Shown in pieces: positions 993 to 43,356 of a stretch of 64,000 nt of DNA. Source of the stretch: Candidatus Magasanikiibacteriota bacterium (GTDB lineage: Bacteria > Patescibacteriota > Patescibacteriia > Magasanikbacterales > GWA2-37-8); contig JAUSEN010000008.1 of the NCBI GenBank assembly GCA_030650025.1, positions 1,164 through 65,163 on the forward strand. Reading direction: 5' to 3'. Numbering within the stretch: position 1 is the stretch's first letter; each line of letters begins with the position of its first letter. Both the position numbers and the translations under genes were made by a program. The notes under the pieces are model-generated. The model was given only the letters and a program-made list of their open reading frames with translations. It searched no databases and was not told the origin of the DNA.

Positions 993-2342
993 TTATAATA
1001 AACTATCATCCGCCGTCGGTTCTTTTACGCCACGGAAAACAACATCTATAATATTTTGGACGCCAAACTGGCGGCCATCCAAAAACCCACTCATGGCCGC
1101 TTCCGCTAGCCAGCCAGAGTTAACCCAGTCAAACAGCCACTCGGATGTATAACGAGGGTCGTTTTGGCTAATGCCCGCGCCAATGGTTTTAAGCCAAGTG
1201 CGGTTAAACACCTCCTGGCTACCAAGAGACGGCGCCATGATAATAGGAATGCCCAAGGCCGAATAAAACACCAACTCGCTCGGCTTTGTCCACAGGATGT
1301 CGGTCGAACGAAGGCTCTCGTTAAGAGCGCGGAAATAATCTTCTTTCTGAAGAGCAAAAATAATTTGTAAATTTTTCCCAAAAACTTTTTCTAAGCCATA
1401 ATTGCTAATGGCCTCGCGAAAATAACAATAAACATCATTGCGCGTGCCGGCTACTAAATTCACATTTATTTCGTTGGCTAACAATTTTTGACGCAGACTC
1501 CACAGCATCTGGCGGCCAATCTTTTTTTGCGCGCCCGCGCCGCCGACCGCGAAAGCCAAGGTCAGAGGGTGGTGGTGCCGCTCTTCTATTTTTATATTTT
1601 TCAAAAAATTCTTGATTGTCTCCGCGTACTTGTGGCGGTAACGGTGTTCCGGATCTAAATTAATCAAACGCTCGGCCAAATCACGCTGGAGCGTATCAAG
1701 ACCCGAGCCGCCGTCCAAATTTTCTTCTGGGAGAGGGAACCCGGTTAAAAATATATTATCTGGTTTAACGCCATAAAGCTTAAGGCGCTCTACCACCCGC
1801 CGGCACGGCGCCAGATACTTAATCCGGCTCTTTTTAGGGTGGAGCGGCGCCCAGGTACGGCTAATATCCGAATCGCAAATTACTAAATAAATATCGTTTT
1901 TAAAATCATGCTCCTCGGCCATAAAGGCGGCGGTAAAAAAAGTGGTAATCAGGGGAATGTTTTTAGTATTTAAAAGCTTTATTAAATCTTTGCCCGAGCC
2001 GCGTTTAATAATGTAATAATTCTGACGAATTTGCAAATTGGGGGCCGAGAGATCCCGCCGTGGATAAAACGCCGGCACTTCTTGAAATTTGTCCATTAAA
2101 CCAAACAGCCACCCGCCAATGAAGGGCACGTTGGACAGGCGAGAAAAAGTCTCATACAAGCGCTGGGTGGCTTGCCAGCCGCGGTATTCTTTTTTCGAGA
2201 TGCCTTCGTAATTATTGGCGTTAATAACCTTGCCGGTCGGCGATAAATGCCGGAGCGGGTACGCCGCCCGCTGGTGGCCATAACCCATGTCAACCACCAC
2301 CACCCAGGCTTCGTGATTAGAATTTTTCTGCTCCATATTCAT
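993..2342 (-). CDS. GT-B fold glycosyltransferase, MurG/UgtP/MGDG-synthase-like (GT28-type)
   Basis: N-terminal VVVVDMGYGHQRAA (G-x-G-H nucleotide-sugar loop). C-terminal IPIIMAPSLGSQEVFNRTWL resembles the MurG/UgtP C-domain motif. Family call is by motif only. Confidence 0.5.
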   Translation of the reverse strand: MNMEQKNSNHEAWVVVVDMGYGHQRAAYPLRHLSPTGKVINANNYEGISKKEYRGWQATQRLYETFSRLSNVPFIGGWLFGLMDKFQEVPAFYPRRDLSAPNLQIRQNYYIIKRGSGKDLIKLLNTKNIPLITTFFTAAFMAEEHDFKNDIYLVICDSDISRTWAPLHPKKSRIKYLAPCRRVVERLKLYGVKPDNIFLTGFPLPEENLDGGSGLDTLQRDLAERLINLDPEHRYRHKYAETIKNFLKNIKIEERHHHPLTLAFAVGGAGAQKKIGRQMLWSLRQKLLANEINVNLVAGTRNDVYCYFREAISNYGLEKVFGKNLQIIFALQKEDYFRALNESLRSTDILWTKPSELVFYSALGIPIIMAPSLGSQEVFNRTWLKTIGAGISQNDPRYTSEWLFDWVNSGWLAEAAMSGFLDGRQFGVQNIIDVVFRGVKEPTADDSLL

Positions 2343-2350
2343 AATCTCAG

Positions 2351-2442
2351 TGTCATCTTGAGGCGAAGCCGAAAGATCTAAGCGTTATTAATTTTCGAAC
2401 GTCGCTTAGATTCTTCTCCGCCTGCGGCGGATCAGAATGACA
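2351..2442. mobile_element. 92-bp MITE-like element with TGTCAT...ATGACA terminal inverted repeats and an internal AGATCTAAGCG/CGCTTAGATCT inverted repeat
   Basis: tgtcatcttgaggcgaagccgaaagatctaagcg...cgcttagattc...cagaatgaca. A related fragment is at 38873-38906, and the same TGTCAT termini occur at 21090-21193. Confidence 0.5.
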
Positions 2443-2449
2443 AAAAATA

Positions 2450-3154
2450 TTAAAATTTAACTCTTTTATTTACCGCCCACAAAAAACCCATGCGCTTATC
2501 AAATTTAGAGGGAAAAATTCGCACGCCAAAACCATGCTCTCGCATTTTCCGCTCTATCCACTCGTAATTATTTTGCCCATAATTATGATACTCCATGATA
2601 ATGGCCCCAATATTCCCAAAATCTTCAGGAGTCGCGCCGGCAAAAACTTCATACTCGCCGCCCTCAATATCCATTTTAATTAGCGCCAATTTTCCTGATT
2701 GCGAAAATTTAATCAAATCTGCCAAACTATAAACTTTTACCGGGATCTCGCCCTCATTTAATTTACCGCGCTTGGATAAAAGCAGTTCGTGATTATGGCT
2801 ATCCGGTGAGAGCTTTAAGACGCCCTCCCCGCTGGCGCGCGCCAGCGCGCCCGCCACTATCCTTACACCGCTAATATTATTCTCGTTCAAATGCTTTTTT
2901 AAAAAAATTAAATTATTCGCTTCCGGCTCCAGAGCCGCCACTTCAACAGCCGGATTAATTGCCTTGGCATACAACGTAAAAAAACCCGCGTGCGCGCCCA
3001 CATCCGCGATGGCAAATTTTGCCTTCTCTATCACCGCCGCGCAAATTCGGTATTCCTCTAACTTAAAAATCTCGGCTACAACGCTTTTGTCCGCTTCGTC
3101 TCTTGTGTAAATAACCAAACTTCGGCCTCTAAATTTAATCAGGCTTTTTTGCAT
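2450..3154 (-). CDS. FkbM-family SAM-dependent methyltransferase
   Basis: DVGAHAGFFT (FkbM DiGAniG motif) and MDIEGGEYEVF (KiDvEGaE motif). Start set at the internal ATG at 3154. Confidence 0.7.
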   Translation of the reverse strand: MQKSLIKFRGRSLVIYTRDEADKSVVAEIFKLEEYRICAAVIEKAKFAIADVGAHAGFFTLYAKAINPAVEVAALEPEANNLIFLKKHLNENNISGVRIVAGALARASGEGVLKLSPDSHNHELLLSKRGKLNEGEIPVKVYSLADLIKFSQSGKLALIKMDIEGGEYEVFAGATPEDFGNIGAIIMEYHNYGQNNYEWIERKMREHGFGVRIFPSKFDKRMGFLWAVNKRVKF

Positions 3155-3189
3155 ATTAGTATTATAGCAGAATAACAAAAACAAAAAAA

Positions 3190-3227: not shown

Positions 3228-3635
3228 TTAGCGTTTGCTCCACTGCGGGCCGCGGCGGGCTTTTTTGAGGCCGGGTTTCTTGCGTTCTTTAATGCGGGCG
3301 TCTCGCGTCAAAAACCTCTGCGTCTTCATGGTTTTGCGCCAGTCTTCATTCCAAATCACCAAGGCGCGCGCGATCCCAAGCTGAACCGCTTCGGCCTGGC
3401 CATGCTTGCCGCCGCCCACCACTTTAGCGGAAATATCCAAATCTTTTTCTTTCGCCACTGCTTTTAAAGGCGACATCACTAAACTTTGCAAAGTAAAATG
3501 CGGAAAATACTTGTTCAATTCTTCGCCATTGATAGTAATTTTTCCAGAACCTTTAGTGAGACGCACGCGCGCCGACGCTCGCTTCCGGCGACCGACAGTC
3601 TGCAAACGATCTTTGGATCCAATAATCTTAGTCAT
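3228..3635 (-). CDS. rpsI: 30S ribosomal protein S9
   Basis: Product ends ...LKKARRGPQWSKR; clear S9 family sequence. Confidence 0.95.
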   Translation of the reverse strand: MTKIIGSKDRLQTVGRRKRASARVRLTKGSGKITINGEELNKYFPHFTLQSLVMSPLKAVAKEKDLDISAKVVGGGKHGQAEAVQLGIARALVIWNEDWRKTMKTQRFLTRDARIKERKKPGLKKARRGPQWSKR

Positions 3636-7592: not shown

Positions 7593-7629
7593 GTAGGGGC
7601 ATGGTCGCATGGGGCGACCTTGCCCCTAC
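7593..7629. repeat. Palindrome GTAGGGGCATG...CATGCCCCTAC overlapping the alaS stop; member of a recurring palindrome family
   Basis: gtaggggcatggtcgcatggggcgaccttgcccctac. The same arms flank GGGGCATGATATATCATGCCCC at 28788-28817 and 37235-37260. Confidence 0.5.
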
Positions 7630-11878: not shown

Positions 11879-13132
11879 TTATTTAATCACTCCCCCGCCT
11901 AAACACGCCCCGTTATTGTAAAACACCGCGAATTGCCCGGGCGTAACCGCGCGCTCTGGCTTTGCAAAATGAACGATAACGAGATTCCTCGTCGGCCTTC
12001 GGCCTCGCTCGGAATGACAACGAACAATGCACTCCTGCAATATCTGGCGATGGCGTAGGCGTACCTGGCATTTTAACGGAAATTGAGGTTTCTGACAAAT
12101 CCAATTAACGCCCGTAACCACAGCTTCTTTGGAAAACAAAAGCAGGTCATCTTCATAGCCAACAACCAATTCATTGGTTCTAATATTTTTAGCGACCACA
12201 TACAAAGGCCGATTCCCCTCTCCTTCGCAAAGGAGAGGGCGAGGGTGAGGACTCGCCAATCCCAAATGCCTCTGACCAATCGTATAAAACGCCAGACCAT
12301 CGTGTTTACCGACAACAATTCGCTGTAGGGGCGGGGTTACCCCGCCCTTACCGTACGACATTATAATCTTTCCCGGTTTATGTTTTATTCTTTTCTCCAA
12401 AAATTCTTTCATCGGCACTTCGCCAATAAAACAAATGCCCATGCTCTCGGCTTTATCCGCGACTGGCAAGCCAAATTTCTTAGCTAATTTCCTGACTTCT
12501 GGCTTAGTATATTCGCCCACGGGAAATAGAGTTTTAGATAACTGCTTCTGGTTTAGCTGGTGCAAAAAATATGTTTGGTCTTTATTTTTGTCTTTGGCTT
12601 CGAGAAGATGAACCAGACCTCCCCCAAACCCCTCCTTTGCGAAGGAGGGGGGTCGAGCTCCCTCTCCATCGCAATGGAGAGGGCGGGGGGTGAGGACTCG
12701 TCTCGCATAATGCCCGGTCGCCAAATAATCAAAACCCAATTCTTCTGCCTTTTTCAGCCAACTCCCAAATTTAATAAATTTATTGCACATCACATCCGGG
12801 TTCGGCGTCCGCCCCTGCCGGTATTCCGCGAACATGTAATCCAAAACATCGCGTTTATATTCTTTAACAAAATTCAGTTTCAAAATCGGAATATTTAATT
12901 GCGCGGCCACGCGCACAGCGTCGCGGTAATCCGGAACATAACAAGACTGCGTCTGTTGTAGTGGCCCGGCATGCCTGGCCACTACGTTTTCGCCGTCATC
13001 ATCGTAATTAATCATAAAAGCCGCCGTGACATTATATCCGGCTTTAACGAGGAGCGCGGCGGCTACGGCCGAGTCCACCCCACCACTAAGCGCCACTAAA
13101 ACTTTTATTTTTTTATTAAACTTTATTTTCAC
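11879..13132 (-). CDS. mnmA: tRNA 2-thiouridine(34) synthase MnmA carrying four in-frame palindromic-element insertions
   Basis: PP-loop SGGVDSAV, ...LATGHYARR..., KDQTYFL, YTIGQR, TPGQFAVFY. At 417 aa it is about 50 aa longer than canonical MnmA. The extra segments map exactly onto DNA palindromes; see findings. Confidence 0.9.
   Translation of the reverse strand: MKIKFNKKIKVLVALSGGVDSAVAAALLVKAGYNVTAAFMINYDDDGENVVARHAGPLQQTQSCYVPDYRDAVRVAAQLNIPILKLNFVKEYKRDVLDYMFAEYRQGRTPNPDVMCNKFIKFGSWLKKAEELGFDYLATGHYARRVLTPRPLHCDGEGARPPSFAKEGFGGGLVHLLEAKDKNKDQTYFLHQLNQKQLSKTLFPVGEYTKPEVRKLAKKFGLPVADKAESMGICFIGEVPMKEFLEKRIKHKPGKIIMSYGKGGVTPPLQRIVVGKHDGLAFYTIGQRHLGLASPHPRPLLCEGEGNRPLYVVAKNIRTNELVVGYEDDLLLFSKEAVVTGVNWICQKPQFPLKCQVRLRHRQILQECIVRCHSERGRRPTRNLVIVHFAKPERAVTPGQFAVFYNNGACLGGGVIK
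11981..12019. repeat. Half MITE-like element (GAGATTCCTCGTCGG-CCTTCGG-CCTCGCTCGGAATGACA) in-frame inside mnmA
   Basis: Encodes CHSERGRRPTRNL in MnmA. A reverse-complement copy is at 15666-15704, and an intergenic copy within 21090-21193. Confidence 0.6.
12215..12257. repeat. Palindrome CCCCTCTCCTTCGCAAAGGAGAGGG plus CGAGGGTGAGGACTCG tail, in-frame inside mnmA
   Basis: Encodes ...SPHPRPLLCEGEGNRPL.... A second, duplicated copy is at 12628-12704. Confidence 0.6.
12321..12344. repeat. Palindrome AGGGGCGGGGTAACCCCGCCC(C)T in-frame inside mnmA; identical in sequence to the intergenic terminator hairpin at 62143-62175
   Basis: Encodes GKGGVTPPLQ, inserted just before the conserved ...HDGLAFYTIGQR. 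Confidence 0.6.
12628..12704. repeat. Tandem palindromes CCCCTCCTTTGCGAAGGAGGGG and CCCTCTCCATCGCAATGGAGAGGG plus CGGGGGGTGAGGACTCG tail, in-frame inside mnmA
   Basis: Encodes RPLHCDGEGARPPSFAKEGFGGG, inserted between the conserved GHYARR and LLEAKDKNKDQTYFL. Confidence 0.6.
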
Positions 13133-14880: not shown

Positions 14881-14920
14881 AGATAAGCAAAGCTTGAAAT
14901 TGCGTCGGTCTTCGCAAAAA

Positions 14921-14948
14921 GAAAACTACAGTTTTCTTTTTGACTCAT
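14921..14948. terminator. Bidirectional intrinsic terminator downstream of the PPDK_N gene
   Basis: GAAAACTACAGTTTTC hairpin flanked by A-run/T-run (caaaaaGAAAACTacaGTTTTCtttttg). Confidence 0.55.
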
Positions 14949-14964
14949 CCCTAGCAATTATAAA

Positions 14965-16032
14965 TTAATTAGTAGTTCGATTTAAAGTCGTAATCGGCCG
15001 GCTCTGGGTGATATAAAATTTACTCCCGACTTTGGCCCATTCAATATCACAGGGGAAGCCATAATGCTTCTCAATATTTATAAAAATCTTAGCCGCTTCG
15101 ATAATTTCTTTGCCCGATAATTTTTGTTTTGTCCCTTCGCTCTCGCTAATATTTCCCCACTCATTGCGCTTCCCCTCTCCGCTATCTACTAACAAATCGC
15201 TTTTGGCGGAACGCGCCAACGCGTTCCCTACAAGTTTTTTTCCTACTAATTTTCGGGTCTGCGTCGCCACATTAATATCAAGAATGCTAAGCTCTGATTT
15301 ACTAACAATATAACTATCAGGAGTAATCTGACCGCCCACAATCGCTTCACCGAGGCCAAAACCGGCTTCTATTATCATCTGATCTCTGTCTTCGGTAACC
15401 GGATGCACGGTAAAAGCAATGCCTGACACTTCAGACTGTACCATAGTTTGCACTACCACCGCAACCGAAACATAGTGGTCGATTAAGTTCTTCTCGTGGC
15501 GGTAAAAAATTGCCCGAGGTGTGAATAGCGAAGACCAGCACTCTTTAACCCGCTCTACTACCTGCTCGGCTGGCGTATTTAAATATGTTTCCAGTTCCCC
15601 GGCCCAGCTCGCGACCGCCGAATCCTCCGCCGTCGCACTGCTCCGGACCGCCACCAAAAAATCATTGTCATTCCGAGCGAGGCCGGAGGCCGACGAGGAA
15701 TCTCCCGAAAGTTTAGCATGAGCTGCCAAAATTTCTACTTCTAAATCTTTGGGCATGGCATGGTCGTGAATCGCGTCCCGAATCACCGCGCTCGCTTTAT
15801 CAATCGAATTTACATCCGCCACGTTCACCTCTTTGAGCCGCGCACTAATTTCAGCATTCAAATCAGTTTCTTCTAAAAATCTATCAAAGGCGCTTGCGAG
15901 CACCACAAACCCGGGCGGGACAGGAATCCCGGTATTCGCCATCTCACCCAAACTGGCGCCTTTGCCACCCGCCTCGGCGACATTGTTTTTAGAAATTTCA
16001 TTGAAGAATTTTAGATGGGGCATACAACTCAA
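14965..16032 (-). CDS. PEP/pyruvate-binding (PPDK_N-type ATP-grasp nucleotide-binding) domain protein with an in-frame MITE insertion
   Basis: GGKGASLGEM ... GIPVPPGFVV ... FLVAVRSSATAED ... AG. The inserted segment SGDSSSASGLARNDND is encoded by the element at 15666-15704. Confidence 0.75.
   Translation of the reverse strand: MSCMPHLKFFNEISKNNVAEAGGKGASLGEMANTGIPVPPGFVVLASAFDRFLEETDLNAEISARLKEVNVADVNSIDKASAVIRDAIHDHAMPKDLEVEILAAHAKLSGDSSSASGLARNDNDFLVAVRSSATAEDSAVASWAGELETYLNTPAEQVVERVKECWSSLFTPRAIFYRHEKNLIDHYVSVAVVVQTMVQSEVSGIAFTVHPVTEDRDQMIIEAGFGLGEAIVGGQITPDSYIVSKSELSILDINVATQTRKLVGKKLVGNALARSAKSDLLVDSGEGKRNEWGNISESEGTKQKLSGKEIIEAAKIFINIEKHYGFPCDIEWAKVGSKFYITQSRPITTLNRTTN
15666..15704. 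repeat. Half MITE-like element (TGTCATTCCGAGCGAGGCCGGAGGCCGACGAGGAATCTC) in-frame inside the PPDK_N gene
   Basis: Reverse complement of the 11981-12019 family. Encodes SGDSSSASGLARNDND immediately before the conserved FLVAVRSSATAED. Confidence 0.6.
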
Positions 16033-21089: not shown

Positions 21090-21193
21090 TGTCATTTCGA
21101 CCCCGCCTCTGGCGGGGAGAAATCTCTATCACAATTGTGAAATGGACAGAGATTCCTCGTCGGTCGCCATAGGCGACCTCGCTCGGAATGACA
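21090..21193. mobile_element. About 104-bp MITE-like element with TGTCATT...AATGACA termini and two internal GC hairpins
   Basis: tgtcatttcgaCCCCGCCtctgGCGGGGagaaatctct...gagattcctcgtcGGTCGCCataGGCGACCtcgctcggaatgaca. Intergenic, between the coupling-ATPase and AMMECR1 genes. Confidence 0.55.
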
Positions 21194-21197
21194 GCGC

Positions 21198-21773
21198 CTA
21201 ATCTTCAGAGAATACTTCTACCTGGTAAGTATAAACCGTGAGCCCTGGTTTTTTCCACTCCTCCGGTTCCAAACCTGCCTTCATACAAAGCGCCGTCAAA
21301 AAATTGCTTTTCTCGAGCATTTCATCCCAGACTTGGGGCAGAAACGTCGCGTTCTTCTCCCCTCTTTCCACCACCACGCCGTCCACCCCCACTCGGAGTT
21401 TATTAAACAAATCTTCCGGGGAATCAAACTCCAAAACTTTCGGATCGGTCAAAACCGAAATTTCAATATTGACATCTGGCAGTTCCTCTTTAGTAACCGG
21501 AAAAAATCGCGAATCCTCAAACGCCGCCGCGTAAGCATTTTCTAAAATATCCAAATACAGCGGACGCCGCGCCTCTAAACTGCCCATACACCCTCTTAAT
21601 TCCACTAAATCTTTTTTAAGCGTCACAAAACACGCCCGCTTGATTTTTACGCTCTCCCCGCTCGCCTCGATCTCGCTCTCTTTAAGTTTCAATTTTTTTC
21701 CAGTTTCTAAAAAATGCGCAATACTCTCGCGCGCTAATTTTAAAAGCCAGGTTTGTTCTTCCCGAGTAAACAT
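21198..21773 (-). CDS. AMMECR1-domain protein
   Basis: ...RACFVTLKKDLVELRGCMGS... is the AMMECR1 signature. Confidence 0.8.
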   Translation of the reverse strand: MFTREEQTWLLKLARESIAHFLETGKKLKLKESEIEASGESVKIKRACFVTLKKDLVELRGCMGSLEARRPLYLDILENAYAAAFEDSRFFPVTKEELPDVNIEISVLTDPKVLEFDSPEDLFNKLRVGVDGVVVERGEKNATFLPQVWDEMLEKSNFLTALCMKAGLEPEEWKKPGLTVYTYQVEVFSED

Positions 21774-30489: not shown

Positions 30490-30984
30490 TTATTTTACAC
30501 TCTTTACAATCTCCCAAGAATCACCAACTTTTAAACTGTTTTTCTTCGCGAAACCAGCTGATAGTTCCAAGACGGCAGTAGAGGGCGCGCGGCCAAAATA
30601 CGGGGTCAGTTCGGCCTCGCTCTTGCTGGCTTCTGGCTCTACACCCGGAGCAATGTCCACCACTGCTTTGCCATTAAGCCAAACAATATCCAGTGGAAAC
30701 TGCATCGCGCGCATTACCATGGCGTGCTGGCCAACCTCGCTAAAAATAAAAAGCATACCGTCTGCCTTCCCCATATTCTTGTAATCACTCCAACCCTGAT
30801 AGCGCAACGCGGGCGTATCCGCCACTAAAACTTTTAGTTCTGTTCCCGCCAGATTAATTGTAACCAAACGCGGACCGGAAAAAAATATTTTAAAAATAAC
30901 CGCCGACCCCACAATAATCAGCAGTAACACAACCTGCCATTTCTTAAATTCCGATTGCTTTTTAGAGCGAAAAATAAAGCTCAT
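30490..30984 (-). CDS. DUF192-domain protein (COG1430-like)
   Basis: N-terminal TM anchor. ...ADTPALRYQGWSDYKNMGKADGMLFIF...MRAMQFPLDIVWLNGKAVV...VLELSAGF... matches the DUF192 pattern. Confidence 0.65.
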   Translation of the reverse strand: MSFIFRSKKQSEFKKWQVVLLLIIVGSAVIFKIFFSGPRLVTINLAGTELKVLVADTPALRYQGWSDYKNMGKADGMLFIFSEVGQHAMVMRAMQFPLDIVWLNGKAVVDIAPGVEPEASKSEAELTPYFGRAPSTAVLELSAGFAKKNSLKVGDSWEIVKSVK

Positions 30985-32000
30985 AACTTGGACTGCGTGC
31001 TTTTAAAACTAAGAGCAACCGCGAATAACAGAAAACCGACCCCCACGAGTAGCAAAGCTACTAATTTTTGATAGCTCTGGAGCCAGAGACCTAACCACCC
31101 AAATAACACCGCTAGGCCAACGAGGAAAGCTAACACCTGCCACTCGCGCCAACCGCGATCAATCAGGACAAAGTGCAGATGGCTCCGATCACCGCCAAAA
31201 ATTGGCTGGTGAGCGCGCCAACGCACGAACATTACCCGGAGCAAATCCAAAACCGGCACCGCCATCACCAAAAGACCGGTCGCTATTTTACTGCCGGCCA
31301 TAATACTTAAGCCCCCGAGCATTAGCCCCACGAACAGGCTTCCCGCTTCTCCCAAAAAAATCCTGGCTGGCGGTAAATTGAATACCAAAAATCCGGCCAA
31401 GGCCGCCGCCAAGCTTAAAGCCACGTACGCCACGTTCGGTTGATAAAATTTAGTTGTTAAAGTAAGCGCCGCGATGCTCAAAGCTCCGACCAAACCAATG
31501 CTCGTGGCCAGCCCGTCAACGCCGTCCAATATTTTTACGCTAATCGTTGTTAGCATTAACCAAAAGAATACCAGCCCGATGCCAAGGAGCGGATCCACCA
31601 AAAAATAACCGCCCGCGGGGTTAGTAATTTTTTCCACGGGGGCAAAAATTGCCACGAGGAGTGTGGCTACTACCAAAAACGGCAGCCGAATGCCAAACGA
31701 TAAAGTCCAAAAATCATCGGCTAGGCCTAGTAATAAATATATTAAACTGGCGATAAAAAGCGCGTACAAAACCGGCCAAAGCAAAAACATGTCCGCGCGC
31801 GGCTCTATAAAATAAACATAAGCTAATGCTCCCCAAAAAGCTAACCAAATCGGCAGGCCTCCCCACAGCGCCACCGGTCGCTGATGGCGCTTGCGGCCTT
31901 GGTCCGGGGTATCCACAATTTTTAAATATAGCGCTAAGCGCCTGACGCCAAAAGTCAAAATCACTGTTAAAATAAATACCGCTACAGAAACTTCATTCAT
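30981..32000 (-). CDS. Polyprenyl-phosphate N-acetylhexosamine-1-phosphate transferase, MraY/WecA family
   Basis: IVDTPDQGRKRHQRPVALWGG; ADDFWTL; VKILDGVDGLATS; FLGEAGSLFVG. These are the characteristic family motifs. Overlaps the DUF192 gene by 4 nt. Confidence 0.75.
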   Translation of the reverse strand: MNEVSVAVFILTVILTFGVRRLALYLKIVDTPDQGRKRHQRPVALWGGLPIWLAFWGALAYVYFIEPRADMFLLWPVLYALFIASLIYLLLGLADDFWTLSFGIRLPFLVVATLLVAIFAPVEKITNPAGGYFLVDPLLGIGLVFFWLMLTTISVKILDGVDGLATSIGLVGALSIAALTLTTKFYQPNVAYVALSLAAALAGFLVFNLPPARIFLGEAGSLFVGLMLGGLSIMAGSKIATGLLVMAVPVLDLLRVMFVRWRAHQPIFGGDRSHLHFVLIDRGWREWQVLAFLVGLAVLFGWLGLWLQSYQKLVALLLVGVGFLLFAVALSFKSTQSKL

Positions 32001-32002
32001 AA

Positions 32003-34792
32003 TTAAGGCTGTTGAATTAAATTACCCTGGCCATCTAAAATCACGGTATCGCGGCGCTTAAGTTGGCCCTTGAGAATTAGCTCGGCCAGCTTATTTTCTA
32101 CTTTGTCCTCTAACGCCCGCCGCATCGGCCGGGCGCCAAACTCGCTGTCAAACCCAATACTAGCTAAAAAATCCAGGGCGCCCGCGCCAATCTCGAGCTT
32201 GATACCCTTGGCGTCTAAGTCATTAATAATACGCTTGAGCATAAAACCCGCCACCTGCTTAATATCCGCCTCGCTAAGCGGTTTAAATAAAACAATGCCG
32301 TCAAAACGGTTGAGAAATTCCGGTTTAAAATAGTCCCGAAGCTGCCCGTGCAGTAATTTGTTTTTAATCTCTTCGCTCGCAACGCCCATACGCATTTGGT
32401 CGCTCACAAAGCTGGTGCCGGCATTAGAGGTCGCGATTAAAATAATGTTGGTTAAATCCACCACTCGCCCCGTGGAATCTGTTAACCGGCCATCGTCCAT
32501 TACCTGCAAGAATAAATTTAAAATGTCTTTATCGGCTTTTTCAATTTCATCAAGCAAGAGGAGCGTAAACGGATTTTGGCGGATCGCTTCGGTTAAAGCG
32601 CCGCTACCGGGTTGGTTCGGAGCGCCAATCAGGCGGTAAATACTGCTCGCGTCTTGATACTCACTCATGTCTAAGCGCGCCATTTTATTCTCGCCGCCAA
32701 AATAAACTTCGGCAATGGTTTTGGCGAGTTCAGTTTTGCCGACACCGGTTGGCCCTAAAAATAAAAAGTTAGCAATCGGCCGGGTGGCGGCTCTAATTTC
32801 CGCTCGCGCCCGGCGCAGAGCATTAGCGACCAAAGCCACGGCTTCGTCTTGCCCCACTACCCGCTCGTGCATTGTTTTTTCTAAATTCAAAAGCTTAGTC
32901 GATTCATTGGCCGTGAGCGCCGCGAGCGGAATATGAGTCTTCTCGGCTACCACGGCGGCTACTTCTTCGCCTAACACCAGAGCGTGCGCGCCTTTATGAT
33001 TACGCGCGTAAGCCGCTGACTCTGTTAAAATTTCTAACGCCGCACCCGGCAAAGTAACATCGTGCAAATAGCGCTTCGCGTACTGAACCGCCTTTTCAAT
33101 GGCTCCGTAAGAAAAAAATACCTGATTCTTATATTCCAAATAACCAACTTTAGATTCTAAAACTTGAATGGCCTGATTTTCATCCATTTCTCGCACCTCT
33201 ACCTTGGTAAAGGCATTGCTCAAGGCCGAACTGCGAATGGTATGCGTAAAAGCTTCGGTCGTGGTGGTGGCTAGTGTCAAAAATCTCCCGCCGCTGATAA
33301 ATTGGCTAAGGCTCGAGGCCACGTCTAAACTCTGCCCCGCGGCGCCGCCGAGAGACACGCCAATTAATTCGTGAATATTATGCACAAACAAAATAATATT
33401 ACGCGCCCGCGCTATTTCATTCATGATAATCATCAAGCGTTCCAGGGCTTCTTCCGGGCGCGCGCCCGAGAGCAAGGCCGAGGTAGAGAGCCTGATGAGC
33501 CTCTTATCGAAAAGGCGGTTCGGCACATCATTCACTATCATGCGCTTGGCGATGCCATCCACAATACTCTTTTTGCCAACACCATAGTCTCCCACTAATA
33601 AAACGCTTTCTACGCCCCCTTCTACCACCCTAAAAATCTCTTCAATCTCCGGCTCTCGCGCCATGCACTCTTCGGTATAGCCTCGTTGCGCCAAAAGTGT
33701 CAGGTCCTCGCTGAAACGGTCTAAATAAGGGGTGGCGAGAGCCGTCATGGCGCGATCCATGCCGTGCTTGCTACGATGGCGCGCGGCCGAGCGGAATTGC
33801 ACGGCTTCGCGGTGGAGCCGCTCCCGAACCCGGGCCCAAACAATGACATTAATTAATTTTTGCCGGTCAATCCCTAAATCAAACAAAATTTCTTGTAGCG
33901 TTTGCGACCAGGCAATGGCCGCTTCTAAAAGTTCTGTCACGCTCACATACTTCTGATGCTCCTCATAAGCGCGGTTATAAGCCAAAAACAGCACCTGCCA
34001 GGTTTCGGCCAAAATGCTCGGGGCGAGCGCCCGGCTTTGGGTGCTATGATTTTTAAATAAAGATTCTAAAGCTTTCTCCAAAGAGGTTGGCGATACTCCG
34101 AGGCGCACAAAAATATTCCCAATCCGCCCCAAAGACAGCAAGCTATAAAACAAATGCAACGGAGAAACTGCTTGGTGGCCGGATTTCTGTGCCAACCGAA
34201 AAGCTAACCCGATGGCTTGCCTGGCTTCGCCGGTAAAGGTATCGGCAATATTGCGTTTTAATTTATGCGGCAACTTAATGGCATCCGCAAAAGTTTGCGC
34301 CAATGCCTCCTCCGGGGCTCCGGGCAGAGTTTGATCCGGCAAATTATTATAATCGAAGCGCTCTACCTCGGCCGCGATCGCTCGCTCGCGCACGCTGCGG
34401 TACCAAGCATAAGTGAAAAAGAGAAGTCCCAGCCAAAACAAGCCCATTACTTGCTTCGGCAAATTAGTAATAAACCAGAGCGGTCCCAAAGCACTCGCCC
34501 CAATATTTTTTAATAACCCGAGCCTCACGATAATAACGCCCGCCCAAACCCAAAAATTTAAACCAATGGCCAAAACTGTAAAAAACCGCAGACGGTTAAA
34601 TATCCGCCGCGCCCTCTCCAGGGCAAAATTATAAGGCGTCAAGGGGTAGCCCCAATATAAAAAATTGCGGCGTTTAAAAAAACCCACGGTCAAGCCATGG
34701 CAGGACCGGCAAAGTTTGCTTCGGATGCGTCCGCGCCCGGCGCAAACCGCGCAGTAAATCAGCGGCAAGTTAATTTGCTTGGCTAGTTCCAT
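32003..34792 (-). CDS. Clp-family double-AAA+ ATPase (ClpC/ClpB-like) fused to an N-terminal zinc-ribbon plus transmembrane segment
   Basis: N-terminus CAVCAGRGRIRSKLCRSCHG followed by ~3 TM helices. Clp_N repeat ...ARQAIGLAFRLAQKSGHQAVSPLHL.... D1 Walker A LLVGDYGVGKKSIV. D2 VVGQDEAVALVANALRRARAEI..., FLFLGPTGVGKTELAKT, and sensor ...GARPMRRALE. Confidence 0.8.
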   Translation of the reverse strand: MELAKQINLPLIYCAVCAGRGRIRSKLCRSCHGLTVGFFKRRNFLYWGYPLTPYNFALERARRIFNRLRFFTVLAIGLNFWVWAGVIIVRLGLLKNIGASALGPLWFITNLPKQVMGLFWLGLLFFTYAWYRSVRERAIAAEVERFDYNNLPDQTLPGAPEEALAQTFADAIKLPHKLKRNIADTFTGEARQAIGLAFRLAQKSGHQAVSPLHLFYSLLSLGRIGNIFVRLGVSPTSLEKALESLFKNHSTQSRALAPSILAETWQVLFLAYNRAYEEHQKYVSVTELLEAAIAWSQTLQEILFDLGIDRQKLINVIVWARVRERLHREAVQFRSAARHRSKHGMDRAMTALATPYLDRFSEDLTLLAQRGYTEECMAREPEIEEIFRVVEGGVESVLLVGDYGVGKKSIVDGIAKRMIVNDVPNRLFDKRLIRLSTSALLSGARPEEALERLMIIMNEIARARNIILFVHNIHELIGVSLGGAAGQSLDVASSLSQFISGGRFLTLATTTTEAFTHTIRSSALSNAFTKVEVREMDENQAIQVLESKVGYLEYKNQVFFSYGAIEKAVQYAKRYLHDVTLPGAALEILTESAAYARNHKGAHALVLGEEVAAVVAEKTHIPLAALTANESTKLLNLEKTMHERVVGQDEAVALVANALRRARAEIRAATRPIANFLFLGPTGVGKTELAKTIAEVYFGGENKMARLDMSEYQDASSIYRLIGAPNQPGSGALTEAIRQNPFTLLLLDEIEKADKDILNLFLQVMDDGRLTDSTGRVVDLTNIILIATSNAGTSFVSDQMRMGVASEEIKNKLLHGQLRDYFKPEFLNRFDGIVLFKPLSEADIKQVAGFMLKRIINDLDAKGIKLEIGAGALDFLASIGFDSEFGARPMRRALEDKVENKLAELILKGQLKRRDTVILDGQGNLIQQP

Positions 34793-34794
34793 GT

Positions 34795-35157
34795 TTAACG
34801 AGCTTTAATAAACAGCTGTACTATTCCCGAGAGAATTAAAAGCGGGAATCCGATCCAAAACAACAGCAAAACCACGCAAAATATCAACCAGACCAGCAAA
34901 GCCAGGCTGCGCATAATAACTTGGAAGAACCGCATCACAAAACTGATGATTCTCCCCTCCCAATCGTATTGCCCAAACATGGGCACAAAAATATTTTTAA
35001 GCCACAAGCCCGGCGCCAAACGCGCGTTCCCCTGCAAAAACCAAACCCAGCAATTTTTGGCCGCGTGCCCAAAACCAAACGAATACCACCACACGGGAAA
35101 ATAAACCAAATCCAAAATAGCTTCTCCTAAAATCTGTTGGAATACCAAAAAATACAT
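34795..35157 (-). CDS. Small hydrophobic membrane protein, hypothetical
   Basis: 120 aa, mostly TM helices. Gap of 3 nt to the Clp gene. Confidence 0.4.
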   Translation of the reverse strand: MYFLVFQQILGEAILDLVYFPVWWYSFGFGHAAKNCWVWFLQGNARLAPGLWLKNIFVPMFGQYDWEGRIISFVMRFFQVIMRSLALLVWLIFCVVLLLFWIGFPLLILSGIVQLFIKAR

Positions 35158-35226
35158 ACTAAATATAGTATATCATAAAATCAACCAGGCGTCTTGAGAC
35201 GCCTGCCTAAATAACATAACTGAATA

Positions 35227-35589
35227 CTAACGTTGCGCCACTAAACTGGGCGCCGCGGCCTTCAGGCGCGTTACCTTGCCTGCCGACACCATATTAACCG
35301 CGCTAAGCCTAACAGAAATCGCCGTGAGTGACTCGGCCGCGGCCAATTCTGTCTCGATCTTTTTATTGCTAGAATTAAGTTCCGCGATTTTTAACTCTAA
35401 TTTTTGCACTTCGTACCCGGCCGTAGAAACATTACTGACCCCGACTATATACAAAACCGCCATCGCGCCAACGCTCGCTAAAATCGCTACTCGCGCCGGG
35501 AGTAAGCCAAGCCAGCGGGGCACGCGCCACAGCGACCAGTATGCTCGCCAGCTTCTGAATTGATACTTTAAGCGTAGTTTAATAGACAT
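35227..35589 (-). CDS. FtsL-like small bitopic cell-division protein. Assigned by position (mraZ-rsmH-ftsL) and architecture only.
   Basis: Single TM helix (LLPARVAILASVGAMAVLYIVGV) followed by a coiled coil (EVQKLELKIAELNSSNKKIETELAAAESL). Lies directly downstream of rsmH. Confidence 0.45.
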   Translation of the reverse strand: MSIKLRLKYQFRSWRAYWSLWRVPRWLGLLPARVAILASVGAMAVLYIVGVSNVSTAGYEVQKLELKIAELNSSNKKIETELAAAESLTAISVRLSAVNMVSAGKVTRLKAAAPSLVAQR

Positions 35590-35602
35590 ACATTTTTATT
35601 AT

Positions 35603-36514: not shown

Positions 36515-36515
36515 A

Positions 36516-36965
36516 CTAAACTCCTAGTTCCGCCATTTTTTCCGCGATCGCGTTGCTTTCAGCCTCGGTACGGCTCTTATAATGTTCCCACTCGGGTTTA
36601 GCCCAAATTTCTAAGCGGCTGTACAGCCCGGCAATAACTACTTCTTTTTTTAAACCGGCAAAAACTCGCAAATATTCCGGGAGCATGGCGCGACCCTGCT
36701 TATCAATCGGGATATCCATGGCGCCCGCTAGCATTAAACGCGCAAACGCGCGGCTATTAGCTTGAGCCATAGGGAGTGCGGCCAATTTCTCGGCGAGCTT
36801 ACCCCACTCGGCCTTGGTGAAAACAAACAAGCAATTATCAAGACCGCGGGTCACCACTGCCCCTTTTTTTAAGTCATTCCGGAATTTGGCGGGCAGGGCC
36901 ACACGCCCTTTATCGTCTAGCGTGTGCGAAAATTCTCCTATGAACATATGAATTGACGAATTCAT
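36516..36965 (-). CDS. mraZ: Transcriptional regulator MraZ
   Basis: Two MraZ repeats: ...MFIGEFSHTLDDKGRVALPAKFR... and ...DKQGRAMLPEYLR.... Start at the first ATG after the leader hairpin (36965). An alternative ATG at 36947 gives the canonical MFIGEF N-terminus. Confidence 0.85.
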   Translation of the reverse strand: MNSSIHMFIGEFSHTLDDKGRVALPAKFRNDLKKGAVVTRGLDNCLFVFTKAEWGKLAEKLAALPMAQANSRAFARLMLAGAMDIPIDKQGRAMLPEYLRVFAGLKKEVVIAGLYSRLEIWAKPEWEHYKSRTEAESNAIAEKMAELGV

Positions 36966-37036
36966 GCCCGATTCAACAGAATCGTGCCGAGCAGTGTCCT
37001 TTGAAGCTCGGCTCGCATTCCTTTGAAGCGCGGCGC
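36966..37036 (-). promoter_or_regulatory. Third, compensated copy of the two-hairpin leader motif (plus a partial tandem extra copy) abutting the mraZ start
   Basis: Minus strand: GCGCCGCGC-TTCAAAGGAATGCGA-GCCGAGC-TTCAAAGGACACT-GCTCGGC-AC-GATTCTGTTGAATCG-GGC-ATG. Stem 1 is GCCGAGC/GCTCGGC here versus GCGCCGCGC/GCGCGGCAC at rplQ and rpsM. The loop is conserved. Confidence 0.5.
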
Positions 37037-37260: not shown

Positions 37261-37296
37261 TGAATTTTTTTATTCTCTAAAACAAGTTAATAATTT

Positions 37297-38715
37297 TTAG
37301 ACCCTAACCTCTAAGCCCACGTTTACCACTGTGGCTTTCACCCCCAAATCCTCGGTTATTCTTTTGGCGAGAGCTTCCGAAGCCACCGGGTCGCCGTGGT
37401 TTAAATAAACCTTTTTTGGAGTCGTAGCGCCTCCGCCAATCCAATCAAGGAGTTTATCCTGATCGCCGTGCGCGGACAGCGCTCCCACCATTTTTACTTT
37501 GCATCTTACCTCGACTCTCTCGCCAAGTATGTCTACAAAACGCTGGCCGTCCACAATTTTCCGCCCCAGCGTCCCTGCGGACTGGTAGCCAATGATGAGC
37601 AAAGTATTTTTGGGGTCTGACAAATAGCGCAGAGCGTGGAACACAATGCGCCCGCCGTTCATCATACCCGCGCCCGCGATAATAATTTTACAACCCGGCG
37701 TGTGGTTAATCTTCATGGATTCTTCGCGCAAATGAGTGAGCGTGAGGCCGGGAAAATTAAATAAATCATCGCCCGCTTTAAAATATTTAGCGGCTTCAGC
37801 GTCGTAATACTCGGGATATTTTTCGTAAACTTTAATAGCATCAATTGCCAAAGGCGAATCTAAAAAAATCGGAACCCGAGGCAGTTTCTTCTTACGGTCA
37901 ATCAAATCATTTAATTCATATAATAACTCTTGAGTGCGCTCGAGCGAAAAAGACGGAATCATAACCACGCCACCCCGCTCTATCCCCTCGCGAATCATAT
38001 TTTCGATTACTTCTTGCCGCTCGTGCACACTCTCGTGCAAGCGATTGCCATATGTCGATTCGCAAATCAGGGCGTCTAGCCCCCCGGGCAATTTTTCGGT
38101 ATCACGGAGTATCGGCACCTCAACGTTGCCGACGTCCCCACTAAACACAATTCGCTTCCCCTCACCGGCAATTTCAATAAACGCCGAACCAAAAATATGC
38201 CCCGCGTCGTGAAACTTAACGACAACCTCACCACTAGTGTCATTCCCGCGTAAGCGGGAATCTAACTCTCTTGACTTCAAGATCCCCGCTTTCGCGGGGA
38301 TGACAATCTCCTCTCCATATTCCACTCCCACAAACATGCTCATCACGCTAGCGATGTCGCTCTCTGCATACAAAATTGGCGTCTTTAATTTGCGATTGTT
38401 ATAAGTCATGACGTTGAGCGCGTCGTCCAAAATTAGCTGCGCCAGCTCCACGGTTGGTTTGGTCGCGTAAATCTTGCCCGCAAAACCATTTTTCGTTAAG
38501 AGCGGCAAACGCCCCACGTGGTCCAAATGCGCGTGGGTCACAAACACGGCCGCGATGGCTTTGTGATCATACCCGAGCGGTTCTGAATTTCTCTTCTCAA
38601 TTTCCGGACTGCCCTGATGCAGGCCACAATCAACCAAAAACTTCTGGCCGCCAACCTCAATCATACTATTAGAACCCGTCACTTCCCGCGCCGCCCCAAA
38701 AAACGTAATTTTCAT
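37297..38715 (-). CDS. MBL-fold metallo-hydrolase (beta-CASP / RNA-metabolising type) with an in-frame MITE insertion
   Basis: HxHxDH motif VFVTHAHLDHVGRLP; ...FHDAGHIFGSAFIEI.... The inserted segment IPAKAGILKSRELDSRLRGNDTSGE is encoded by the element at 38239-38305. Confidence 0.75.
   Translation of the reverse strand: MKITFFGAAREVTGSNSMIEVGGQKFLVDCGLHQGSPEIEKRNSEPLGYDHKAIAAVFVTHAHLDHVGRLPLLTKNGFAGKIYATKPTVELAQLILDDALNVMTYNNRKLKTPILYAESDIASVMSMFVGVEYGEEIVIPAKAGILKSRELDSRLRGNDTSGEVVVKFHDAGHIFGSAFIEIAGEGKRIVFSGDVGNVEVPILRDTEKLPGGLDALICESTYGNRLHESVHERQEVIENMIREGIERGGVVMIPSFSLERTQELLYELNDLIDRKKKLPRVPIFLDSPLAIDAIKVYEKYPEYYDAEAAKYFKAGDDLFNFPGLTLTHLREESMKINHTPGCKIIIAGAGMMNGGRIVFHALRYLSDPKNTLLIIGYQSAGTLGRKIVDGQRFVDILGERVEVRCKVKMVGALSAHGDQDKLLDWIGGGATTPKKVYLNHGDPVASEALAKRITEDLGVKATVVNVGLEVRV
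38239..38305. repeat. Complete ~67-bp MITE-like element (TGTCATTCCCGCGTAAGCGGGAATC...GATCCCCGCTTTCGCGGGGATGACA) inserted inside the MBL-fold CDS
   Basis: TGTCAT/ATGACA termini. Two internal hairpins: ATTCCCGCgtaaGCGGGAAT and ATCCCCGCtttcGCGGGGAT. The host ORF remains open. Confidence 0.6.
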
Positions 38716-38976
38716 GTAAATCTTCGTTATTTAATCTAAAAAATAAACTTAACTCTATATATTAGAGCTCTTTGAATATTATACCAACCGCCATCTCAAA
38801 ACACAATTCGAAACACCTCCTCAAGCCGCCCAGTGTGCATAACTTCACACGTATGTACTTTACGCATAATCCTGTCATCTTGAGCGTAGCGAAAGATCTA
38901 AGCGTTTTATATTTTGGCGAATTGACTTAGATAAACTTAAATCAAGTGATAATTCTGCTATGAGAAATCCATACCG

Positions 38977-41460: not shown

Positions 41461-43275
41461 GTGAATAGCCACATCCGTAACTTCTGTATTATAGCCCACA
41501 TTGATCACGGCAAATCCACCTTGGCGGATCGATTCTTGGAATTCACCAAAACCGTGGCCGCCCGCGACATGAAATCACAACTCCTCGACAGCATGGATCT
41601 GGAGCGCGAACGCGGCATTACTATTAAACTCGCCCCGGTGCGTATGCATTATACCAATTCCGGAACCGAATACATTTTAAATCTCATCGACACTCCCGGA
41701 CACGTGGATTTCAATTACGAAGTTTCACGATCGCTCGCGGCGGTGGAAGGCGCCATACTCCTCGTGGACGCGACCCAAGGCGTGCAAGCCCAGACCATTG
41801 GCAATTTATATTTAGCCTTAGAGCAAAACTTAAGCATTATTCCGGTTATTAATAAAATCGACATGGCTATCGCCAATGTCGAAAAGACCCGGGCCGAAAT
41901 CAAAAGCTTGACCGGGTGCAAAGACCAAGACATTATTCTCGCCTCTGGCAAAACCGGGCAAGGGGTCCCCGAAATTCTGGAAGCTATTATTAAACGCGTT
42001 CCGCCGCCTGCGAACAATATTCAAACTACCCCCCGCGCCCTTATTTTTGATTCCTTGTTCAACGAATATAAAGGTGTCGTGGCCTCGGTGCGCGTAGTGG
42101 ACGGCGTCTTAAAAAAAGGCGATAAAATTATTCTGATGTCTACCCGCGCTCCCGCCGAAATTTTAGAACTGGGCTATTATGTGCCTAAATTCCACCCCGC
42201 GCCCGAACTAAAAAATGGGGAAATTGGTTATATTGTCACTGGCCTTAAAGAAGTACGCGATTGCCGTGTCGGCGACACTATCACTCTCTACGATAAAGCC
42301 CGTGGCGCTTTAAGCCAATCGCCCCTCCCTGGGTATAAAGAAGTCAAACCCATGGTCTTTGCCGGCATCTTCCCCAAAGACGGTTCCGCCTACGAAGAAC
42401 TGCGCGACGCTATTGAGAAGCTTAAACTAAGCGACTCGGCCTTAATTTTTGAACCCGAGCACTCCTCGGCCCTTGGCTTTGGGTTTCGCTGTGGCTTTTT
42501 AGGAATGTTGCATCTAGATATTTTTCAAGAACGCTTAAAACGTGAACACGATCTCGAAGTCGTCATTACCGCGCCGAGCGTAGCCTATCAGGTAACCAAA
42601 ACTAATGGCGCCGTAGTCGTCATCAAAAGCCCCACTGAAATGCCCGAGCAGAATTATGTGGTAGAAGTAGAAGAACCGTGGATGAAGCTTGATATTATCA
42701 CCCCCAAAGATTATGTCGGCGCTGTGATGGGCTTAGTCCAAGAGCGCCAAGGACGTTACCTCACTACCGAATATCTCTCGTCCGGGGCGGACCAAAGAGC
42801 CTTATTACACTACGAAATTCCGCTGGCTTCTCTGATTACTGATTTTTATGATAAACTAAAAACTGTCACCTCTGGCTATGCCTCCATGAACTACGAACTC
42901 AAAGGCTACCACAAAACCGAAGTAGTGCGCCTCGATATTTTAGTGGCCGATGATTTAGTGGAGTCTTTAGCCACTCTGGTTTGGAAGTCAGACGCCCACG
43001 CCGTGGGCAAAAAAATTTGCGCCGCGCTCAAGGACAGTTTGCCGCGCCAGCAATTTGAATTAAAAATCCAGGCCGCGATTGGTGGCAAAATTATTGCCGC
43101 CGAGAGGCTGTCGGCCCTGCGTAAAGATGTTTTGGCCAAGATGAGCGGCGGCGACGTTACCCGCAAAATGAAACTGCTCAAAAAACAAAAACAGGGCAAA
43201 GCCAAAATGAAAGCCGCGGGCTTGAGCAAAGTTAATATCCCGACTGAAGCGTATCTGGCCGTGCTGAAGCGTTAA
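41461..43275 (+). CDS. lepA: Elongation factor 4 (LepA)
   Basis: IRNFCIIAHIDHGKSTLADR (G1); DTPGHVDF (G3); NKID (G4); conserved LepA C-terminal domain. Confidence 0.95.
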   Translation: MNSHIRNFCIIAHIDHGKSTLADRFLEFTKTVAARDMKSQLLDSMDLERERGITIKLAPVRMHYTNSGTEYILNLIDTPGHVDFNYEVSRSLAAVEGAILLVDATQGVQAQTIGNLYLALEQNLSIIPVINKIDMAIANVEKTRAEIKSLTGCKDQDIILASGKTGQGVPEILEAIIKRVPPPANNIQTTPRALIFDSLFNEYKGVVASVRVVDGVLKKGDKIILMSTRAPAEILELGYYVPKFHPAPELKNGEIGYIVTGLKEVRDCRVGDTITLYDKARGALSQSPLPGYKEVKPMVFAGIFPKDGSAYEELRDAIEKLKLSDSALIFEPEHSSALGFGFRCGFLGMLHLDIFQERLKREHDLEVVITAPSVAYQVTKTNGAVVVIKSPTEMPEQNYVVEVEEPWMKLDIITPKDYVGAVMGLVQERQGRYLTTEYLSSGADQRALLHYEIPLASLITDFYDKLKTVTSGYASMNYELKGYHKTEVVRLDILVADDLVESLATLVWKSDAHAVGKKICAALKDSLPRQQFELKIQAAIGGKIIAAERLSALRKDVLAKMSGGDVTRKMKLLKKQKQGKAKMKAAGLSKVNIPTEAYLAVLKR

Positions 43276-43291
43276 AATACCCCGTCATTGC

Positions 43292-43320
43292 GAGCCCCCG
43301 ACGCAGTCGGGGCAAAGCAA
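43292..43320 (+). terminator. Possible intrinsic terminator after lepA
   Basis: CCCCGACgcaGTCGGGG hairpin followed by CAAAGCAATTTTT. Weak T-run spacing. Preceded by a GTCATTGCGAGC MITE-like end. Confidence 0.35.
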
Positions 43321-43356
43321 TTTTTAAAAATTATAATTAATTTCTCAAATTTACTT

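Follow-up and report, generated by a model that had tools for sequence, protein, structure and literature searches.

The short palindromic repeats dispersed in the window, that is, the whole 64-kb stretch of DNA that was analysed, are best explained as members of the CGTC/TGTC-tagged REP superfamily (dRS3/NTS, RPE-4/6, SRM), and their hairpin modules are predicted to be substrates of the GIY-YIG nuclease Ssn. A probability of about 0.78 was assigned to this reading, which is based on sequence comparison. When the copies were read side by side, the repeat unit turned out to be an oriented hairpin module of 25-42 nt and not an element of 65-105 bp. Each unit has an unpaired (T/C)GTC at its 5' end, a stem whose first two pairs are A-T and T-A, an inner stem-loop that is GC-rich and varies, and a C on the 3' side; the "full copies" of 65-105 bp are read as HH dimers (two inverted units with their tags outside) and the "half copies" as singletons or decayed dimers.

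Modules were scored by folding at every GTCAT in the window, and ten oriented hairpin modules of the form (T/C)GTC–AT…stem-loop…AT–C were recognized. Their positions by fold score are:

2352-2377, + strand, module
2410-2441, - strand, module
11984-12018, - strand, module
15667-15701, + strand, module
21091-21123, + strand, module
21152-21192, - strand, module
38239-38261, + strand, module
38282-38304, - strand, module
38874-38897, + strand, module with a weak stem
43284-43321, + strand, module with a T-run instead of C

The tag is unpaired and reads TGTC in nine modules and CGTC in one, and all ten stems start and end with AT, the first pairs being A-T and T-A, two features by which the CGTC-tagged REPs are recognized. 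A C follows the stem directly on its 3' side in 9/10 modules. The outer stem is usually ATTCC…GGAAT or ATCCC…GGGAT and encloses a GC-rich inner stem-loop that varies by copy; eight of the modules are two-tier, in that an internal loop separates the outer stem of 5 bp from an inner stem that varies, while the remaining two form the dimer at 38238-38305. The outer sequence GTCATTCCGAGCGAGG...CGACGAGGAATC is common to three modules. Under a strict definition (GTCAT, a single hairpin with dG <= -7 right after GTC, and C after the stem) the window gave nine matches, comprising eight of the ten modules and a chance-like one (44650-44700), compared with a mean of 0.36 and a maximum of 3 in 100 dinucleotide-preserving shuffles. 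This definition narrowly excludes the module at 43284, whose stem is followed by T and not C, and that at 38874, whose stem is weak, and a looser scan of the window for all GTC + hairpin sites yielded no further convincing members. Scans of the window with Rfam (at gathering thresholds) and for tRNAs returned nothing, with no rRNA or tRNA genes; its G+C content is 47%. Identical copies of its proteins were met solely on a 5.9-kb Logan contig from SRR13727527.

The published SRM pattern, HGTCWYN(0-2)YYVSBRHN(0-5)WNVSBRGN(0-2)RNCYNB (Chenal et al., 2025; Nat Commun 16:2388; PMC11893778), has one exact match in the window, 38278-38305(-), against 0.14 in shuffles. The partner module 38238-38265(+) misses this pattern at the last position alone and differs at 3/28 positions from the Neisseria NTS consensus CGTCATTCCCGCGMAVGCGGGAATCYRG, which contains the dRS3 repeat (PMC11893778). 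These two modules are also the only ones with the 8-9-bp stem and 4-5-nt loop of the four described CGTC families (CGTC-1 to -4), in which the loops of some species differ in length (Di Nocera et al., 2013; BMC Genomics 14:522; PMC3733652). The other eight modules are too long for the SRM pattern and do not have the stem and loop format of the four families, which is a point against the main reading.

At the level of whole copies, the modules are arranged in the window as follows:

2351..2442, HH dimer A, 92 bp, left module 2351-2378 (+), right module 2409-2442 (-)
11981..12019, - strand, single module TGTC-ATTCCGAGCGAGGCCGAAGGCCGACGAGGAAT-CTC, in frame in mnmA (11879..13132 -), encodes CHSERGRRPTRNL
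15666..15704, + strand, single module of the mnmA type whose loop is GGA, not GAA, inside the PEP-synthase-like gene 14965..16032(-)
21090..21193, HH heterodimer B, 104 bp, left module 21090-21124 (+), right module 21151-21193 (-), intergenic
38238..38305, HH dimer C, in frame in the MBL/beta-CASP gene 37297..38715(-), encodes VIPAKAGILKSRELDSRLRGND
38873..38930, + strand, truncated dimer A, intergenic between divergent genes (38715 to 39133)
43283..43322, + strand, single CGTC-tagged module CGTC-ATTGCGAGCCCCCGACGCAGTCGGGGCAAAGCAAT, 8 nt past the stop of 41461..43275(+)

An earlier note on this DNA had described a multi-copy family of small non-autonomous palindromic elements with full and half copies, and this description holds: the TGTCAT...ATGACA pairs were found at 2351-2442, 21090-21193 and 38238/9-38305, and the single ends at 11981-12019 (-), 15666-15704 (+), 38873-~38930 (+) and 43284-43321 (+). 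Each of the three full copies consists of two inverted modules with the TGTC tags outside, 20-32 nt apart (3/3 window dimers are HH), and the other copies are solitary modules or, in one case, a truncated pair. Folding, which the note had proposed to examine, showed that each strand of a whole dimer forms a long hairpin (z-scores between -3 and -8.9). The interiors were said to differ between copies, which is true of the inner stems but not of the three modules that share GTCATTCCGAGCGAGG...CGACGAGGAATC, nor of the copies at 2351-2442 and 38873, which have the left module and spacer in common.

The label "MITE-like" was retained only in the sense of a non-autonomous repeat family. Classical MITEs are deletion derivatives of insertion sequences whose terminal inverted repeats (TIRs) are moved in trans, by cut-and-paste, by a DDE-type transposase encoded elsewhere, and the inverted TGTCAT...ATGACA termini, the size of 65-105 bp, the presence of several copies and the absence of a transposase from the window would all be compatible with such an origin. 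Reading of the flanks by eye, however, revealed no target-site duplications (TSDs) at the window copies or at the ssn units of two related loci, L121 and L124 (see below); no direct repeat beyond 2 nt flanks 2351-2442, 21090-21193, 38238-38305 or either unit. Nor was a target motif seen by eye. Moreover, what had been taken for TIRs are the unpaired TGTC tags plus the basal stems of two independent hairpin modules with their tags outside, each hairpin being self-contained and also found alone, and the interiors vary between copies while tags and basal stems are kept. As the only gene recurrently bracketed by such ends, among the matches listed, encodes a GIY-YIG nuclease of ~100 aa, a MITE origin is considered very improbable.

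Dimer A occupies a 107-nt gap between the (-) genes 2450..3184 and 993..2342, 7 nt past the stop of the former and 8 nt ahead of the start of the latter. Its left module is TGTC-ATCTTGAGGCGAAGCCGAAAGAT-C and its right module TGTC-ATTCTGATCCGCCGCAGGCGGAGAAGAAT-C, the spacer ends are complementary (CTAAGCG...CGCTTAG) and the DNA folds at -18.4 kcal/mol (z -3.5). In the truncated copy at 38873..38930 a weak-stem left module is followed by the spacer up to CTTAGAT and the right module is missing; alignment with 2340-2450 showed that left module, spacer and 7 nt of left flank are common to both copies. The shared left module and spacer indicate that the dimer, and not the hairpin alone, was copied at least once. 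A scan of a collection of metagenome contigs for the A-type left half gave no match, not even the window copy, so that the source species is absent from that collection. The 7 nt in question, CATAATC, lie to the left of the TGTCAT tag and are identical at both A-type copies (2340-2350, 38865-38872), the CAT at 2340-2342 being the start codon of the gene 993..2342(-); this identity could be due to chance, to a co-duplicated flank or to a target preference. Dimer B starts 4 nt past the stop of 21198..21773(-) and combines a left module with the inner stem CCCCGCC-TCT-GGCGGGG and a right module of the GTCATTCCGAGCGAGG...CGACGAGGAATC type with the inner stem GGTCGCC-TAT-GGCGACC, both followed by CTCT(A/G)TC (z -5.3 / -6.8).

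The inner stem-loop GGTCGCC-NNN-GGCGACC of dimer B recurs in the window, at four sites against 0.03 expected. The recurrence of this GGTCGCCTAAGGCGACC hairpin had been pointed out before, and its positions are now corrected (322-338 instead of 329-345; 37151-37167 instead of 37149-37165). The four sites are:

322-338, untagged hairpin
7603-7619, untagged hairpin, one mismatch
21162-21178, inside the TGTC module of dimer B
37151-37167, untagged hairpin

The three untagged sites are the inner stems of two-tier hairpins, each with a different outer stem, located just 3' of (-)-strand genes; as they carry no tag they were not counted as family members. The same inner stem occurs within tagged modules of one patescibacterial locus (L003) and of a gammaproteobacterial MAG (L074). 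Another intergenic motif, TAGGG(G/A)TGAGTCAAAAA-[A/T-rich hairpin]-TTTTTGCGAAG(C/A)CCGACG, is present at 933-975 and 14904-14950 between (-)-strand genes and is terminator-like, beside a promoter-like TTGACT box.

The location of the intergenic copies raises the possibility that a role at the RNA level is primary, the hairpins being 3'-UTR stabilizers, terminators or processing sites under selection and the link with Ssn incidental. The copies at 2351, 21090 and 43284 begin 4-8 nt past stop codons, a location reported for REPs generally (PMC3733652), the folds are strong, and the module at 43283..43322 is followed by TTTTT instead of C, so that it may double as a terminator. On the other hand, four of the ten modules (five with 38874), at 3-4 of the seven sites, cannot be 3'-end signals, as they are inside coding sequences (two of them in antisense orientation) or in the promoter region of divergent genes, and the dimers fold equally on both strands. 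No module other than 43284 has a T-run after its stem, and a terminator scan called no module, 43284 included. By comparison, the genuine terminators of the window are a stem plus a T-run: the hairpin at 37234-37261, shortly past the end of the MBL gene, has a perfect stem of 12 bp with T-runs on both strands and resembles a bidirectional terminator, which indicates that canonical intrinsic terminators are in use in the source organism. An RNA role would also leave unexplained the unpaired tag, the 3' C and the identity of the outer 28 nt across phyla. For these reasons it is judged unlikely as the primary explanation, even if it is compatible with the assignment to the tagged REPs and does not exclude it.

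Three in-frame insertions are present in the 64 kb, in the MBL/β-CASP gene, in mnmA and in the PEP-synthase-like gene; the earlier note had recognized the one at 38239-38305 and missed the other two. Dimer C is made of two short 8-bp-stem modules, ATTCCCGC-GTAA-GCGGGAAT and ATCCCCGC-GAAA-GCGGGGAT (z -7.4 / -8.9), and adds 22 aa to the MBL/β-CASP protein that are lacking in its closest homologs (69-73% identity). In an AlphaFold model of this protein (pLDDT 86) the insert is placed between two strands and is the sole segment below pLDDT 50. The best named homologs of the protein are from Patescibacteria, mostly Candidatus Magasanikbacteria (60-65% identity). At precisely this codon a more distant homolog (L126; JGI 3300014208, 1259-1345) also has an HH dimer, whose stems are those of the window dimer (left ATCCCCGC, right ATTCCCGC) and whose spacer differs; this points to an ancient insertion common to both or to an insertional hot spot. 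In the left loop of the L126 dimer there is an additional inner hairpin, CCTGCCTGCC-GG-CAGGCAGG, which suggests that module loops may diversify by gaining new small palindromes.

The peptide encoded by the mnmA module falls opposite gaps in the alignment with the solved MnmA 2hma. The module at 15666..15704 is antisense and in frame, encoding GDSSSASGLARNDN just ahead of the VAVRSSATAED motif, and this insert likewise corresponds to gaps in the alignment with solved homologs. When, as a crude criterion, every module enclosed by a frame of >=150 aa without stops was counted as intragenic, the share in CPR loci came to ~40%. It can be proposed that copies are retained, as inserts of 13-22 aa, where they entered a surface loop of a protein in frame. 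CPR genomes comprise about 1 Mb and are almost all coding, which would explain why the repeats are often found in frame inside essential genes. A second, unrelated palindrome family is also present in frame in mnmA, at 12200-12256 and 12611-12697 (- strand), with the stems CCTCTCC-TTCGCAAA-GGAGAGG, CCTCTCC-ATCGCAAT-GGAGAGG and CCCTCC-TTTGCGAA-GGAGGG; it encodes PHPRPLLCEGEGN and VLTPRPLHCDGEGARPPSFAKEGFGGGLV, its 87-nt stretch folds at -52.6 kcal/mol, and it brings the palindromic inserts of this gene to four. Pro/Gly-rich inserts resembling this second family fill the MBL loop of three CPR homologs (P0010, P0032, L121).

A search of GTDB species genomes with the pattern GTCATTCCGAGCGAGGN{6,16}CGACGAGGAATC, derived from three window modules and with 28 specified bases, matched more than 118 stretches in many phyla. 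Among the matches listed, the hosts include Patescibacteria/Magasanikbacteria, Acidobacteriota, Hydrogenedentota, Bacteroidota, Lachnospiraceae, Oscillospiraceae, Planctomycetes, Zixibacteria and Alpha- and Gammaproteobacteria. The family is thus not reduced to a few instances with unrelated interiors, the outcome that the earlier note had named as contrary to its proposal, since this is the yield of one subfamily pattern. The paired arrangement was examined in the window together with the matched loci (921 kb, 282 modules): of the module pairs <=150 bp apart, 47 have the tags outside, versus 12, 10 and 9 in the other orientations, and the gaps of the tags-outside pairs cluster at 18-40 bp.

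Evidence on a partner enzyme comes from the genes adjacent to these modules. Ssn-like GIY-YIG genes were identified by motif, tblastn and HMM queries in 8 of the 118 8-kb stretches among the matches listed, and in seven of these eight the distance from gene to module is ~150 bp or less; L049 has as its nearest candidate, 86 bp off, a weak hairpin headed by GTCTC that would fail the strict definition. The association was found in Patescibacteria or unassigned relatives (L007, L121/L122, L123, L124/L125) as well as in L041, L042, L030, L086 and L020, and in L007, L041, L042, L121/L122, L123 and L124/L125 the gene is flanked by modules with their tags outside. In L007 (Magasanikbacteria MAG MFQZ01) a 98-aa GIY-YIG gene lies between modules 3045-3078(+) and 3419-3450(-), while in L124/L125 two glycosyltransferase genes enclose the unit TGTCATTCCGAGCGAGGCCAAAGGCCGACGAGGAATC–ssn–GATTCCTCGCTACGCTCGGAATGACA, and the left module of L124 differs from the window modules at 11981/15666 solely in the 3-nt loop. 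The Ssn-like proteins were assigned to PF01541 (Pfam), and a comparison of the CPR Ssn with NCBIfam and PDB sequences gave zero matches. At least 6,664 homologs were counted, which makes this a large family, and it is common in Patescibacteria. Within the 64-kb window no GIY-YIG/ssn gene was detected by motif scan, tblastn or a profile HMM of 120 Ssn homologs, and the elements are thus non-autonomous, as the earlier note had concluded from the lack of a transposase there.

The reading frames of several ssn genes run into the flanking modules (L121 8508-8892, L124 896-1266, L123 314-781). The ssn of L121 stops at the TGA within the terminal ATGACA, and its final 8 residues come from the module; the ORF called in L123 is longer by 36 aa at the N-terminus, a stretch that two modules encode.

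Mobilization as REP/REPIN elements by a RAYT, a tyrosine transposase of the IS200/IS605 type, would account for much of the same architecture, as these elements are also tagged oriented hairpins that form inverted doublets without TSDs, and RAYTs act on ssDNA hairpins (PMC11893778, PMC3733652). The tag here, however, is (T/C)GTC and not GTAG, and CGTC REPs were reported to "lack a dedicated transposase", with no RAYT or IS200 gene flanked by CGTC units (PMC3733652). When 609 module-adjacent ORFs were clustered all-against-all, GIY-YIG was the only family that recurred across unrelated loci (118 loci, among the matches listed). A GIY-YIG gene as sole recurring neighbour speaks against a RAYT or any other transposase, and a RAYT-driven family is accordingly regarded as hardly credible.

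Comparative evidence for mobility was obtained from L121 (GCA_035290705.1, Patescibacteria), which is syntenic with positions 30981-38715 of the window, the common order being MBL, mraZ, rsmH, a clpB-like gene (63% identity) and a glycosyltransferase-4 gene (48% identity). In L121 a ~380-bp unit, TGTCAT-module / ssn (GIY-YIG) / module-ATGACA, is located between the clpB-like and glycosyltransferase-4 orthologs. The corresponding position in the window is:

31995..32010, - strand, "empty site", clpB-like stop and glycosyltransferase-4 start 2 nt apart

Presence at one syntenic site and absence from the other suggests that the hairpin–ssn–hairpin unit behaves like an insertion sequence, although the difference could represent loss rather than gain.

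Based on the available evidence, the interpretation of the window modules as tagged REPs served by Ssn can be extended to a possible mechanism. The modules would be substrates of a CPR Ssn encoded elsewhere in the source genome; given that no ssn lies within the 64 kb, this cognate enzyme is deduced from relatives (60-65% protein identity). The autonomous form would be the ~370-410-bp [module(+)]-ssn-[module(-)] unit of related Patescibacteria, and the window dimers its gene-less counterparts. The HH geometry would provide one cleavable module per strand, with the cut just outside the element. The window shows neither a strand-transferase partner nor a TSD; it can only be guessed that nicking of ssDNA is followed by copying coupled to replication or recombination, or that the copies are spread through transformation and recombination. 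The Neisseria Ssn system trims incoming transforming ssDNA. A more tentative extension, which is rather doubtful at present, is that the ssn unit of Patescibacteria may be an active TSD-less mobile element, with dimers and hairpins still colonizing these genomes (including in-frame insertions in housekeeping genes). As part of the same proposal, two-tier GTCATTCCGAGCGAGG-[variable hairpin]-CGACGAGGAATC might constitute a CGTC family that is new to the literature and spreads horizontally, with outer 28 nt identical in >10 phyla and an inner stem diversifying by loop insertion as in L126.

With this assignment a puzzling "MITE" finds its place in a class of repeats for which the partner enzyme became known only in 2025, and the CGTC-tagged REP/SRM class is extended to bacteria of the candidate phyla radiation. 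The novelty is modest and concerns the CPR host phylum, the two-tier module, in which the inner stem varies and the outer parts are identical across phyla, the density of in-frame insertions (three in 64 kb) and the comparative evidence for the ssn unit as an insertion. Rickettsia-like "protein-coding palindromes" are recognized in mnmA, in a β-CASP RNase-like protein and in a PEP-synthase-like protein, and for genome annotation the family accounts for recurring peptides (VIPAKAGI, LDSRLRGND, CHSERG…) and for odd length variation of CPR proteins.

Of the known systems, the CGTC-tagged REPs are the closest in anatomy. They carry the tag CGTC, or the variants TGTC/CCTC, have stems starting with AT and a short 3' tail, and occur mostly as HH dimers, with frequent heterodimers and 20-100-bp spacers with complementary ends; they are found right after stop codons or in frame in genes, where dimers encode 20-30 aa (PMC3733652). 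The window copies resemble them in the unpaired CGTC/TGTC tag, the A-T/T-A first pairs, the short 3' tail starting with C, the HH (hetero)dimers with complementary spacer ends, the singletons that resemble dimer remnants, and the post-stop and in-frame locations. They differ in host, since the five phyla listed for these REPs exclude Patescibacteria/CPR, and in structure, as the window modules are mostly two-tier with the tail CTC/CTA whereas the described CGTC REPs have an 8-9-bp stem with a 4-5-nt loop and the tail CCA. These REPs were equated with dRS3 in Neisseria and with RPE-4 and RPE-6 in Rickettsia conorii, the latter two corresponding to CGTC-4 and CGTC-1, respectively (PMC3733652). 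Like the window copies, the Rickettsia palindromes lie in frame in housekeeping genes and add short peptide loops; host and stems are different, and the likeness is by published description (PMC3733652).

REPINs/BIMEs share with the window family the inverted doublets of tagged hairpins, the absence of TSDs and a gene for an ssDNA-acting enzyme flanked by the repeats, but their tag is GTAG and their enzyme an HUH/Y1 transposase, in contrast with TGTC and a GIY-YIG nuclease without known strand-transfer activity. The elements QMITE1 and QMITE2 of Coxiella burnetii are also small palindromic non-autonomous repeats that overlap ORFs (PMC5896051); they were considered and rejected, as QMITE2 is a GTAG REP with 7-11-nt direct repeats, QMITE1 measures 300-400 bp (PMC5896051) and the host here is a Patescibacterium.

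As regards the partner enzyme, the counterpart is the NTS/SRM system, in which the repeat is bound as ssDNA, in one orientation, by Ssn. Described from four bacteria, the Ssn enzymes are ~94-aa single-domain GIY-YIG nucleases (cd10448) that cut a few nt upstream of the tag; the 3 nt before the palindrome are critical for cleavage and the C after it for binding, and ssn genes are often bracketed by the motif (PMC11893778). That such a unit behaves as an insertion sequence was only hypothesized in that study, and CPR hosts are unmentioned in it (PMC11893778). The window differs from this system in having no ssn, in its long two-tier variants, which escape the published SRM pattern, and in the location of the modules, about half of which are intragenic compared with 2% of the NTS in N. 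meningitidis (PMC11893778). Both have in common the GTCAT head and the C past the palindrome, and the NTS-ssnA-NTS architecture is matched in the relatives of the window by modules that bracket single-domain GIY-YIG genes of ~100 aa.
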